Assembly: GCA_903908245.1 (NCBI GenBank)
Contig: CAIVRE010000028.1
Span: 1-58,089 of the forward strand
Direction: 5' to 3'
Length of the DNA stretch: 58,089 nt
Source of the DNA: Candidatus Omnitrophota bacterium
GTDB taxonomy: Bacteria > Omnitrophota > Gorgyraeia > Zapsychrales > Fredricksoniimonadaceae
Made by a program: the position numbers. Numbering within the stretch: position 1 is the first letter of the stretch; each line of letters begins with the position of its first letter. This document shows, piece after piece, positions 1 through 6,000 of this stretch.

Positions 1-3000
1 AGTATCAGGAAAGGAGCCTCGATGAGTACAACCCGAACACATGAGATCTGGACGAGATTAAAGCTGGCATCAGAGATCAGCGATCTGACCGAGAAAGAAT
101 GGGGTGTCGTCTTACCGCTGTTGGAAAAAGAACTCGCGGCCCGTGAAGTTAAACGGATCAAGCATCTCCTGCATCGTTCCGGGATCAGGAGGATCAAGCG
201 ACTGGAAGACTTTGACTGGAAGTTCAATCCCAAGGTTCCCAGAACCGAGATCATGGAATTGGCGCGGACATCCTGGGACAAAGAAGTCAGGAACGCCGTA
301 TTCATCGGCACCAGCGGAATCGGAAAGACTCATCTGGCGGAGAGCCTCTGCATGCGTGCGATTGAAAATGGCATCCCGGCCACATGCATCTCTTGCCACG
401 ACCTCGTTGAGAAACTAAAAGCTTCCCGTAATAAGGCGTCTCTGGTGCATTATTATGCTACGGTCAAGTTATTGTGCCTGGACGAGCTTGGATACGTGTT
501 CCCAACACCGGATCAAGCCAACGACATCTTCCAGATCGTCTCAAAACGATCCGAATTGTCATCGACGATCATCACAACCAACCTGCTCCCGGCGCAATGG
601 GGAAAGATATTCGAGGCCGCCACAGCGACCGCGATCTTGGACCGGCTCAGTTATAACGGAACTTTTTTGCCTTGGGAGGGGCCATCTTATCGAAAAAAGA
701 AATAATTGAAGGCATGGTCAGTCAGAAAGCAAGAATCAGGGAGAGCCTGTCTTCGACAGACCATTCTTTACCTTACGTCGTGCCCACCGGGGGCCCAGCA
801 TGATCATAATCGGGCCCTTTACGATGATCGCTTACACATCCTTAATTACAGCCATCTTTTGCCTGGCAATGCCCTCAGCAGCTCCAGTTGTAAGATCCAT
901 CTGAACCCAACGCGCATCACTATCAATAATGTTCTGACATGTCCACACAATGCCGTCCTCTGTATCTAAAACCATCGCAGGCATTCTCAAATCCGCATCC
1001 TGCCACATCAACATTTTCCCGAGATACTTCTTGGCCGTTAAAGGCTTATCGCCGTTCTTCCCCAGATCCGCCTTCACCCACAAAGGTTTTCCATCCTGAA
1101 GATTCTGACAAGTCCAAACGATCCCCCGAACCCTGTCAACTATCATCGCGGGAGTCCTGACATTAACAATGGCCCGGCCTTCCATCATTACCATTTGATA
1201 CCGCCCCTCCTGGGTTTCTTCAGTAACTTTCTGAGCAAAAACAGACCCACAAAGAAAAAAGACACCAATAAAGATCAAACTTGCGAATAAATTCCTCATT
1301 CTCACCCCCATTTGTGCATATTATTCATTACTAAATATCACTCGTTAAATCACAGAAAAACCTATCCTCGCCAAATATTCAAAAGTGCCGTTATAAAAGT
1401 CCGGATCTCTTGTCGGGTCTGTTGCATCCCCTGGTGGAACTACAATAACCATCCCCTGACGCGCACGCGTTAATAGAACACGATACGCATTCTTTAGGTA
1501 ATTCTTTCTCTCCGCCTTCCGAATTTTATTCCAACGATCGCCACAAAAAGAGCAATGATCCCATCCCGCCTTTGTATGTCTAAAATCCGCATCCCAAGTT
1601 ACACAAACCCAATCCAGTTCAAGCCCCTGAACATGAAACTCTGTGGCCACATCCTCTAAATAGTAGGAAGAGCGTACATCTTCTTTGCCATCTAGGAACC
1701 AATGAACGGGGTCCATCGGGGACTTAACATCGATCGCATACGGCTTTAGCCGCTCTGCTTGCGACGAAACTACAACTCCATATCTTTCCGAACCCCGCGC
1801 CTGTTGTTTTAACCATTCCCGTGCCTTATCCTGATCCCGAGTAATAACGATAGGATATTTATCCTTTAACAAGCTGAAGGTCTGCTTAGCGTCATCACAA
1901 TTGAGATCTAGCAGCTGTTTGACCAGCAACGAGACATTCTCCGCGCGAAAAGAGCGCATCGAAACAGAAAGATGAAGCTCCGACTTATACTCCACAGACT
2001 GCCGGGCCTCCAAAGGTTTTAAAACATCCCCGACCCCGTACTCGCTATCTGTAAGACGCGGTGAGATATAAACACACCACTGGGGAAACGACCGGTTCAG
2101 GGATTCGATCCATTCACTAATGCCAGCCTCGCCAGTATTTATCTCTTGCCCCCCGCCGACAAGGCAAACAATAACAGCCCAATCCTTATGACGATCCAGG
2201 CACGAGATCAGAAATTCCGGCTCGGATTGATCAAACCCGGGGCGATTCTTCTTACGACGCATAAAGTTACATGTCTGCTCTTTATTCCACGCACGCTGTG
2301 CCTCATCAAACAAGACAACATGCTCATGAAGGGGCCCTAGATCCAAAAGGCATTCATCCCTAAAGTGATGAACGTTTTGAATGAACGTCTTCACTTCACT
2401 CAATGCTTCGCCTTTTTTAACCCGATTTCCTTGCTCTTTAGCCCGGCTTACTTTATCTCGAGCCAAAGCTTCGCAAAGAATTTTGACTAACGGGCCATTC
2501 CCCGATAGGAAAACGCTATAAAGATCACTATCTTTGTCATTGTGCGTAGTGGCAATATTTAACCCCACCAATGTCTTACCCGCACCAGGCACTCCGGTCA
2601 CAAAGCAAATAGCCTTTTGAGACCGCTCTTTTGAAATTCTGATAATTTCAGATAGGGAATTAGATGTTTGTGTGAGATTGATTGCCCCCGCTTCCTTACG
2701 GGAGATATCTTCAACCGAATGTCGGTTATAAAGAGCCATCGCCGCTTCGATAATCGTCGGCGTTGGAGAATACCGGCCGTCTTCCCAGTGACTGCCGTCA
2801 ATAGACGCTCCTTCACAAAGAGCCAAAGTATTTGTTATAACATCTCGTAACAAGTTGGTATTGGTTCTAATCGGAAAGAATACTTTATCGTTCTGCGGCG
2901 TTAACGCTATGACCGCCGCACTATCTTTAGCATTTGTTGCAATAAGAACAGGCGCAATAAAATGATTATGGCTCGTCTCATGGAAGTTTTTCAGATCTAA

Positions 3001-6000
3001 AGCATAATCCCATACCTGATCCTCGGCAGAAACTGTGAACGTCTTTTCTCCCACCTTAAATTCAAGTACAAAGATTACGGATCCAATCAAAAGCGCCACA
3101 TCAATTCGACGCCCCATACGAGGAATTGAATATTCAAAATATACAGTGCCTTCAAAAGACTGAAGAACTTCACGCAGAACACTAATTTCTTCTAGCCAAG
3201 CATCCCTCTGCTCAGCTTCTACTGAGAATTCTGAGCCCCGAACGATCTTCCCCAGAATGACGTCTGATGAAGATTGCCTAAAGCCATCTATTGAATCCGA
3301 GTAATAGGCTCTATTCATACCAAAACCCTGATAAATTTTGCCACCACCATAAGCGAACCATCATTATCCGGTGGTACAATTATTGGCTGAAATGCCGGAT
3401 TTAATGGTAGAAGAGAAATCTCGTCGTGTTCCCATGTTTCATCAGCGTTTTCTTTCTTCTTACTCGTATATTTCTTAACTGTATACTTCCCCCCAGTTTC
3501 AGGATCTAAAGGAGTATGCCACTGCACCAAAACAACCTTGTCCTGCCGAGTGCCGACAACATTTGCTTGGAATATACAATAACTTCCGTCTGGTATCAGG
3601 GGCTCCATCGATTTCCCAATAACCTTAGAAACGAACATATTCTTGTTTAACCGAATTCCATCGATCTTGAGCCACCCCTTCTCTTCAGCCTCCACACCTT
3701 CTCCAAAGAGCCCGCAGGCCGCCTCGAGAGTATAAACAGGCAAATACTCTTTAAACTGCAACTGCTTTTCGATGGTTTCTTCCAACAAGAACCGTTGCTC
3801 TTCAACCGGTGAAACAATATCACCAACTAAAAGAGGCGTCCCTTCACCCACTGCTAATCTAGAACGAAAATAGGCCTCAACTTCTTTATCGACAAAATAA
3901 ACATAACAACCGCGCATCCCGCGGGTCATTAGAACACGATAAATATTCCTCGCATAAGAATCAAAACCAGCCCCGCCCTTCTTTAACGTTGGATCACATG
4001 TCCCCGTCATATCTCCAACAAGTCGATCAGTCTCCCGATCGTACTTTAAGTCAGCACCGACAATAACCCCAATATAGTCGAATTCAAACCCCTGAGCCGT
4101 GTAGATACAGCCAACTTGCTCAACACCCCCGGTCTTAAACGCCCACTGATACCATCTAGGAATGCCTGCTTGCAGTTTACCCCCATCCTTAGCCTCCCAA
4201 GGCATGGAGAAATCACCAATGACAACATCCTTAACTAAAGACCCATCCGCATTAGGATCGCTCCACGGCCAGCAATACCCGGAGACTAAGCGCGCAGAAT
4301 TCGGCTTCTTTGATTCATGGCTTCTTATAAACGCATAAAGCTCTGTCGGTGAACCCATGATCCGAAAATCAAAGTTGTCCTCAGGACCAAGCTTTCGCTT
4401 CTCATTGGTATAGCCCAATACATCTTCCAGCCAAAGAAGATAATTATTAGACCCATTGCACCTAAATTGGGATTGCAACTCAACCTCATCAACCATTGCC
4501 TTATACTGAATGGCATATGACTTTATCAAGGCAGTTGCACCAACCTCTCTAGCCCGAACACTCTGCTTATCATCAATAAAGAAGACAGAGGTTTTGGCGC
4601 AACGTATCAGCTGCTCAATCTGGGGCATATCTGTTCTATGCTCCGCCAGAGTAAACTGACTATTACTTTTCTTTTCTATCCTATGCGCCTCATCAACGAT
4701 CAACACATCCAAACCGTTCTCATCAACCTTGCTTGGAACAAACCGCGACAACTCTGAAATCAGGATCTTTCCCTTTTTGCCAAGCTTATCCATCAATGCC
4801 TCACGAAAAGGCTTGGATTTACAACCATAGAAAACTGTCTTTCCCTCTTTTGCAAGCTCAGCGAGCACATTAAGAGCGATAACCGTCTTCCCTGTTCCAG
4901 GGCCGCCTTGCACCAGAATAATATTCTTCGTTTTAGAGCGAACGCTCTTCCTCACCCGAGACATGATGATATTCTTCGCAACTAACTGCTCATTCAGCAA
5001 TGAAAAGATCGGCCTGTTCTCAATAATGCCAGCGACATGCTCTAAAAGCTTCCTCGATGGAGATATCTTGCTTTGCATAAAACGGTTAAATATCTCAAAA
5101 CCATCCCCTTTCGCCAAAAGAACATGCAATCTATCGGCTAGAAGTTGAACATCATCCTTGGCATAAACAGGGAACTCCTCGATAACTTTACGATACCTAG
5201 GGGCAAAAAGCCCTTCGCCCGCGATCTTTGAATAGTTGTGACAATATGCACAACTAAAAAGATCCAGGCCGTCTTCAACCTCGAAAACTTGAACGAAATT
5301 AATTAAGTGATGATGGTACCCTTCCACCTGCTGAGACGGATGTGCAACACGGCGAGACGCGCCACCGGTAAATGTTTCTACAAAATTCTCTTCATCATCT
5401 AATTCTGTAACAGAACTCCACTGCTTCAACTCAATCAAAACAACGTACGACTTTCCACTTTGTCCTCGTCCAAACAACAAACAATCAATACGCCCGGTAT
5501 TATAGGGGACCTCATACTCCAGTGAGATCATGTTGTTATCAAGCCCGGCGAGATCAATGAGATTCTTTACATGCTGGAAAGAATTGCTCCATGAATTAAA
5601 TTCCGGAAGCCCTACGTAACGACCCGCCTTGCTGGCAGTCGATTTCATGATGTCGGCAATCCGATTGCCTAAAACATCTTCTTTGAACTGTTTTGTCGTA
5701 TTCTGATAAAGAATCATTATCTAATGTCTCTAAATAAAAACCCGGGCATAATTGCCCGGGTCATTGGTTTCGTTCCAATTTGTTAGAATAAAATCTCATT
5801 CCAGAAGTCCTTTACTGGTGTGATCAATGTCCGAAATTATAACACAGCGCCCTGCTTCTCACAACAAGCACTCCCGCATTTGACGGCTCTTATCGTTCTT
5901 GTCCCTCGATCGACGATCTTTTGCCTTAGCCAATACTGCTCCACCAAACGGGAACAAGAACGATCAAATGCTCCACTTTAACAACAAAGAAATACCCCAT

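Follow-up and report, generated by a model that had tools for sequence, protein, structure and literature searches.

A tandem of predicted nuclease-helicase genes, one with an S24 (LexA/UmuD-like) peptidase tail, at a candidate defence locus of an Omnitrophota bacterium

Contig CAIVRE010000028.1 of a Candidatus Omnitrophota bacterium (assembly GCA_903908245.1) carries two overlapping genes on its reverse strand, here called gene A and gene B. The window that we analysed is the whole stretch of 58,089 nucleotides (nt). The locus comes from lake-water metagenomes (DNA sequencing runs), and the nearest homologues of both genes are found in metagenome-assembled genomes of Omnitrophota, from which the host is inferred. 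Each gene encodes a protein in which a PD-(D/E)xK nuclease-like domain precedes a DUF2075 helicase, and A ends in an additional peptidase domain of the LexA/UmuD type (Table 1). We favour, with modest confidence, the view that the pair is an operon of two autonomous, separately evolved Nhi-like nuclease-helicase effectors, of which A is probably licensed by RecA-stimulated self-cleavage.

Architecture of the two proteins and the tail of gene A

A and B are divergent paralogues. An alignment of the N-termini including Walker A gives 23% identity (E = 8e-7), one of motifs V–VI 30%, and both proteins match the DUF2075/Schlafen group-3 helicase family PF09848 (A, amino acids (aa) 264–610, E = 1.4e-82; B, E = 5.9e-83). 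All superfamily 1 (SF1) helicase motifs are intact in each protein, reading GGPGTGKT, DEAH, DDKQ, YTAQGFEFDY and VLMTRG in A and including VLLTRAR in B. Ahead of the helicase, the key nuclease residues are invariant across the aligned homologues, namely E67, D78, E96 and K98 in A (77 homologues) and E62, D73, E86 and K88 in B (33 homologues). The N-terminus of A gives two sub-threshold family matches, to NERD (E = 0.0024) and PDDEXK_9 (E = 0.011), and its AlphaFold2 model (mean predicted local distance difference test score (pLDDT) 84.6) shows the expected N-terminal order α-β-β-β-α-β. A whole-chain Foldseek search with A returned the SF1B helicases RecD, SLFN11, Dda, RecD2 and Dna2; the weaker model of B (pLDDT 70.7) matched SLFN14 and SLFN11 best. 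Sequence searches of the PDB, with single sequences and with a profile, yielded Walker A-level matches and nothing more, and NCBIfam and PHROGs returned no specific family for the helicase parts of either protein. The start codon of B overlaps the stop codon of A, so that translation of the two is probably coupled; L181, a related locus, has an identical 4-nt overlap. An earlier note on this DNA had described two divergent paralogues joined by an ATGA overlap, each with an intact D...ExK nuclease-like N-terminus and helicase motifs, and on these points it was right. It missed the C-terminal domain of A.

This domain, at aa 665–793, is a Peptidase_S24 domain (PF00717) that scores 33.6 bits against a gathering cut-off of 23.3, and the tail also matches the phrog_4 repressor (E = 5e-12). 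S703 (in GxSMEP) and K748 (in TVKxY) are kept in all 54 tailed homologues, and they align, with a weak E-value, to the serine and lysine of the C-terminal catalytic domain of Mycobacterium tuberculosis LexA. Just before the domain, the tailed homologues share the motif LPVYxLxAA(A/C)↓GxFG, the arrow marking the predicted cut. Among the 54 sequences P660 is found in 54, A667 in 47, G669 in 48 and F671 in 53, and position 668 is alanine in 33 and cysteine in 21. The scissile bond is Ala-Gly in LexA and lambda CI and Cys-Gly in UmuD. A linker modelled as disordered (aa 624–640, pLDDT <50) precedes the predicted site and tethers the tail.

The tail is present in 21 of 55 bacterial loci and 0 of 25 archaeal loci (Fisher p = 9e-5, for loci that are not phylogenetically independent). 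Archaea, to our knowledge, have no RecA/LexA system, and the restriction of the tail to bacteria fits a dependence on bacterial RecA. The tail is also modular. Tails of the same type (45–50% identity, including the LPVYxLxAAxG site) follow other N-terminal parts in P0260, P0261 (263 aa) and P0271 (281 aa); one of these parts is a ~125-aa domain without a known family, on long contigs, and the other is a D...ExK-like fragment. Given that the tail has the full set of catalytic and cleavage-site residues, hangs on a flexible linker, is modular and is restricted to bacteria, a LexA-like switch is the best-supported idea for it. A literature search of titles and abstracts returned no paper on an S24 tail of a defence protein, and we found no published description of such a tail on a nuclease-helicase of this kind.

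Table 1. Features of the locus, with positions in the window
Feature	Position	Strand	Remarks
Gene A	3315..5717	-	800 aa; PD-(D/E)xK nuclease, DUF2075 SF1B helicase and S24 tail
A nuclease-like core	5238..5540	-	aa ~60-160; E67, D78, E96-x-K98
A helicase domain	3888..4928	-	Walker A G271-K277, DEAH 342-345, motif V 539-548, motif VI 593-599
A predicted self-cleavage site	3705..3740	-	LPVYTLEAAC↓GLF, aa 660-671; expected cut Cys668-Gly669
A S24 (LexA/UmuD-like) peptidase domain	3339..3725	-	Ser703 in GKSMEP, Lys748 in TVKKY
A/B stop/start overlap ATGA	3315..3318	-	'GGT ATG A' = A stop and B start
Gene B	1345..3318	-	657 aa; PD-(D/E)xK nuclease and DUF2075 helicase; PADLOC PDC-S41; Nhi-like clade
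B nuclease-like core	2929..3147	-	E62, D73, E86-x-K88
B helicase domain	1435..2616	-	GVPGAGKT 242-249, DEAQ 338-341, QGLELD 564-569, LLTRAR 615-620
Upstream region of A	5732..5864	-	between tRNA-Met and A; where relatives have the MazG-like gene
Sigma70-like promoter	5864..5836	-	promoter-like site
12-codon mini-ORF	5798..5760	-	MRFYSNKLERNQ
GC hairpin and U-run	5762..5739	-	ends ~20 nt before the ATG of A; fold z-score -3.4
tRNA-Met (CAT)	6100..6176	-	borders the low-GC stretch; 3' end points to gene A
159-aa secreted protein	832..1311	-	starts 33 nt downstream of B; candidate operon member
IstB helper ATPase of IS21	22..705	+	PF01695 E = 1.8e-46; NF038214 E = 1.3e-55; left border

Families of the two genes and how often they travel together

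B is matched from end to end by the PADLOC family PDC-S41 (model PDLC05014; E = 4.9e-286, 948 bits, aa 1–655 on model positions 1–651 of 657). A gives only a partial, weak match to this model (E = 2.2e-16) and is therefore not a member. B is also colinear over its full length with WP_074642486.1, a plasmid protein of Bacillus thuringiensis (28% identity over 654 columns, E = 2e-65). That protein is in turn 89% identical, over the 399 residues available, to the 'Nhi-like' protein SG141 of Bacillus cereus FSL H8-0482, for which the observed defence is given as 'v' (Millman et al. 2022, Table S2). Compared directly with the 399 aa of SG141 available in that table, B scores E = 6e-41; A is much more distant from this validated protein (E = 8e-11). 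The full-length colinearity with the SG141 orthologue makes B a distant member of the validated kind, and on sequence grounds B can be labelled Nhi-like or PDC-S41. Neither A nor B is a sequence member of Nhi itself, since the PADLOC Nhi model matches the Walker A region only (A, aa 253–422 on model positions 196–332 of 470, E = 8.7e-15; B, E = 8.6e-5). Conservation of B across phyla is 66–75%, and no other conserved partner of B appeared among 149 neighbouring open reading frames (ORFs). The PDC families derive from a guilt-by-embedding screen (PMC12988326). PDC-S41 was not among the candidates tested in the cold-seep study, and our literature search found neither the name nor an experimental test of it. 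One search match, on a Halomonas plasmid, carries no annotation.

The family of A is very large: of 1.84 billion cluster representatives, 745 match at E <=1e-30. It comes in forms of ~625 aa without the tail and ~800 aa with it; its core is 55–60% conserved across phyla. When the neighbours of 160 related loci were clustered, a MazG-like nucleoside triphosphate (NTP) pyrophosphohydrolase (~115 aa, PF12643, E = 2.8e-22) emerged directly upstream of A in 66 of the 84 loci with enough upstream sequence (79%). It lies within 50 nt of A in 62 of those 66, and the other 18 loci have no adjacent MazG-like gene. The window resembles the latter: a tblastn search with 67 MazG-like proteins detected no such gene or remnant in its 58 kb (best E = 0.07). 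A MazG-like plus DUF2075 pair from Bacillus firmus was listed as the candidate system 'Pyrophosphatase' and assayed as SG192, with observed defence 'x', and cloning of a second construct, SG193, failed (Millman et al. 2022, Table S2). A is 30% identical to the DUF2075 protein of SG192 over 411 aa (E = 4e-62) and is a variant of a listed, unvalidated candidate family. MazG and DUF2075 were not found together in any paper by our literature search. The earlier note could match the locus to no named system, a statement overtaken by the full-length PDC-S41 match of B, its homology to the validated Nhi-like protein and the prior listing of A's MazG-like plus DUF2075 module.

Two side observations concern the A family. 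In P0313, P0403, P0404, P0408 and P0413, A-family cores stand behind N-terminal extensions of ~500 aa, giving proteins of 1090–1640 aa. The homology search returned B's own entry but none at 100% for A (best 72%) despite an identical 800-aa gene on contigs, which is probably a quirk of the index.

Co-occurrence was counted in genomes scanned with the A profile and in metagenomes scanned with B. Each scan kept the best 80 loci, those most similar to the query, so that the percentages lean to the window's own sublineages. On this basis B is present in 4 of the 80 genome loci (~5%; L006, L007, L011 and L021), and A in 6 of the 32 B loci with at least 2 kb upstream (~19%; from the 80 metagenome loci); in two shorter B loci the 3' part of an A gene is visible. 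The closest homologue of A (73% identity) lacks B; it is preceded by MazG and followed by unrelated genes of a defence-like kind. Conversely, a solo B of 87% identity (L183, 1970–4404) lies directly 3' of a tmRNA gene, with no A beside it; islands are known to occur at tmRNA genes as they do at tRNA genes. These counts, the closest A without B and the lack of a recurrent partner of B indicate that neither family needs the other.

Where both genes occur together, their arrangement is constant. In 18 of 18 independent pairs A precedes B on the same strand, mostly at a spacing of -4 to 70 nt. Within the B sublineage of the window (>=79% identity) seven of nine informative loci have an S24-tailed A ahead of B, and two loci (L180 and L182) hold full MazG-A-B triples. 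The A partners in sister loci are 42–45% identical to the A of the window, from which we infer either that the modules have been reshuffled or that A evolves much faster than B. The tandem is thus a facultative cassette rather than an obligate two-subunit system, and should not be annotated as an obligate two-gene system. The two-subunit module proposed in the earlier note is therefore not the general rule in these families.

Genomic setting of the locus

The pair lies in DNA of lower guanine-cytosine (GC) content (0.43–0.475 over positions 1001–5500, 0.50–0.58 in the flanks) between the IS21 insertion sequence and the tRNA-Met gene, as first noted. A 229-kb scaffold with an identical locus (L161) extends beyond the left end of the window and gives the order from the tRNA gene as A, B, the 159-aa secreted protein, IS21 (IstB, IstA) and AbiEi/AbiEii. 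The AbiE pair is complete and belongs to the same low-GC stretch (PADLOC E = 6e-86 and 4e-67). In this scaffold (12614–17275, to the left of the window) the AbiE genes follow IS21 (IstB, IstA and a 184-aa ORF), and next come two further genes, one for a membrane protein of 197 aa and one for a protein of 892 aa without a known family. The 159-aa protein has a signal peptide and an internal repeat (GIVWTCQN, twice); its homologues are copies from the same strain only, and searches of Pfam, PADLOC, NCBIfam and PHROGs gave no family match.

The tRNA gene had also been proposed as the integration site of an island. The locus abuts the 3' end of the tRNA gene and deviates in composition. However, no integrase is found among the called genes of the L161 locus, and no second copy of the tRNA-Met 3' end (24 nt, <=3 mismatches) lies within 15 kb or in the 22-kb extended locus; repeat finding at the island borders gave short chance matches and nothing more. 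With neither an integrase nor a repeat of the tRNA end, integration at this tRNA is unproven.

The spacer between the tRNA gene and A holds a sigma70-like promoter, a 12-codon mini-ORF and a GC hairpin with a U-run (Table 1). It shows no conservation in other loci and is unique to this strain, and in an Rfam search of the spacer the tRNA was the sole match. Possible roles of this element are those of a ~95-nt small RNA, a leader or an attenuator.

Relatives of the two genes have neighbours of a defence type, including HNH_2, Vsr, C5-methylase, PIN, Fic, RadC, RhuM and McrBC-like genes. Among 2.9 million viral contigs both families are rare, with a handful of distant relatives, so neither is typically phage-borne.

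Elsewhere in the window (8185–10773, + strand), an 862-aa ORF, of 841 aa in L161, encodes an FtsH-like protease with two consecutive AAA modules followed by an M41 peptidase. FtsH has one AAA module.

Interpretation and comparison with known systems

A defence role of the locus is plausible in view of the PDC-S41 and Nhi-like identity of B, the AbiE pair next door and the defence-type neighbours of relatives. The defence module suggested by the earlier note is partly supported. Because each gene stands alone in its family at large, A and B are best seen as autonomous effectors deployed together.

In the mechanism that we propose, A and B would be co-transcribed and translationally coupled, and inherited as a (MazG)-A-B cassette in this B sublineage. 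By analogy with Nhi, B would nick, unwind and degrade phage replication intermediates, and A may carry out the same basic chemistry. RecA filaments on single-stranded DNA, forming on phage replication intermediates or on damaged DNA, would stimulate the self-cleavage of A at Cys668–Gly669. This would detach the ~130-aa tail and switch the nuclease-helicase, most likely on.

A more ambitious version holds that A is licensed directly by the SOS sensor through LexA-like self-cleavage, set off by RecA filaments on phage or damaged single-stranded DNA and freeing or activating the enzyme, within a conserved MazG-A-B cassette of a cooperating pyrophosphatase and a second Nhi-like enzyme. We regard it as possible, and less probable than the operon of two autonomous effectors.

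Three other explanations deserve attention. A and B might form an obligate heteromeric nuclease-helicase in which neither subunit works alone. The ATGA overlap, the strict order and tight spacing in 18 loci and the 7/9 association in the B sublineage speak for such a complex, and Schlafen relatives of the helicase domain are dimeric in solved structures. Yet the partner is missing in ~95% of A loci and ~80% of B loci, and neither the closest homologue of A nor the 87%-identity B beside the tmRNA gene has it; in Bacillus, one gene suffices for the activity of the validated Nhi-like protein, and every catalytic motif is kept in both proteins, with no sign of a dead subunit. We consider an obligate complex unlikely. 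An accessory SOS or DNA-repair module, in which MazG house-cleaning would join a UmuD-like-tailed A acting on damaged or non-canonical DNA and B would be a second repair helicase, strikes us as about equally improbable. The tail of LexA/UmuD type, a MazG-like partner that is a house-cleaning type of NTP pyrophosphatase, the high conservation across bacteria and archaea and the single, negative defence test (SG192) all speak for repair. Against it, the genes are patchily and horizontally scattered, in low-GC variable DNA beside tRNA and tmRNA genes, insertion sequences, toxin-antitoxin and restriction genes, a relative of B is a validated anti-phage protein, and PADLOC lists the family of B as a defence candidate.

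The least probable of the three, and in our judgement a poor bet, is that B alone is active and A is a crippled passenger, deprived of its MazG-like partner and native promoter and kept silent by the hairpin. The window does lack a MazG-like gene or remnant, and a strong terminator-like hairpin stands directly before A in an upstream region unique to this strain. Still, A is not truncated and none of the residues invariant in its 77 homologues has changed, 18 of 84 A loci likewise have no adjacent MazG-like gene, and the start of B overlaps the stop of A, so that the two are probably coupled in translation.

Several observations weigh against the operon of two autonomous, RecA-licensed effectors that we prefer. 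Both families are conserved across phyla to a degree unusual for defence genes. A is without its usual MazG-like partner, of which the window holds no remnant, and SG192, the sole MazG-like plus DUF2075 construct tested, gave no protection. B is only 28% identical to the validated protein, and validation is pending for most PDC candidates, the class to which its family PDC-S41 belongs (PMC12988326). On the side of the switch, some LexA-like proteins are known to cleave without RecA (PMC7101444), and in the structural model the helix at the predicted cleavage site shows no docking into the active site. Finally, the terminator-like hairpin ~20 nt before the start codon of A makes expression of A uncertain.

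If the RecA-licensed switch in A is real, an immune effector would be under the control of proteolysis. Such a switch bears on how single-protein nuclease-helicases such as Nhi distinguish phage from host DNA; we conjecture that infection may be signalled by RecA filaments and the enzyme switched by proteolysis. Bacteria and archaea alike carry the MazG-like plus DUF2075 module, which is very widely distributed, is conserved to a striking degree and has been tested once, with a negative result.

The locus can be set beside several known systems. In Nhi of Staphylococcus epidermidis (SERP2475; Bari et al. 2022), as in A and B, a nuclease stands ahead of an SF1B DUF2075 helicase. Nicking and unwinding of DNA have been reported for Nhi, which is also reported to need the phage single-stranded DNA-binding protein for its activity (10.1101/776245; PMC12904381). 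The Nhi-like SG141 likewise combines an N-terminal PD-(D/E)xK nuclease with a DUF2075 helicase in one polypeptide chain, a domain order shared by both A and B, and has in common with B the signature GxGQEIxxGE. It differs from B in that identity is low, PADLOC keeps the clade of B separate as PDC-S41, and B is coupled to a second nuclease-helicase. PDC-S41 itself is a single-gene phage defence candidate in PADLOC; B matches it end to end but is coupled here to a second gene. The 'Pyrophosphatase' candidate contains a DUF2075 protein homologous to A, but its MazG-like gene is missing from the window, and the SG192 protein, at 643 aa, is too short to include the S24 tail of A.

Group III Schlafen proteins (SLFN11 and SLFN14) have a helicase domain in the same Pfam family as A and B and are their best or near-best fold matches, whereas their N-terminal nuclease is an AlbA_2 tRNA nuclease rather than one of PD-(D/E)xK type, and overall template modelling (TM) scores are low (0.26–0.30). 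LexA, UmuD and lambda CI belong to the same S24 fold family as the tail of A, and like it have a Ser-Lys dyad and, just upstream of the catalytic core, a site that is Ala-Gly or Cys-Gly. They differ in their cargo: in A, the predicted self-cleaving tail is borne not by a helix-turn-helix repressor or a polymerase subunit but by a 668-aa nuclease-helicase.

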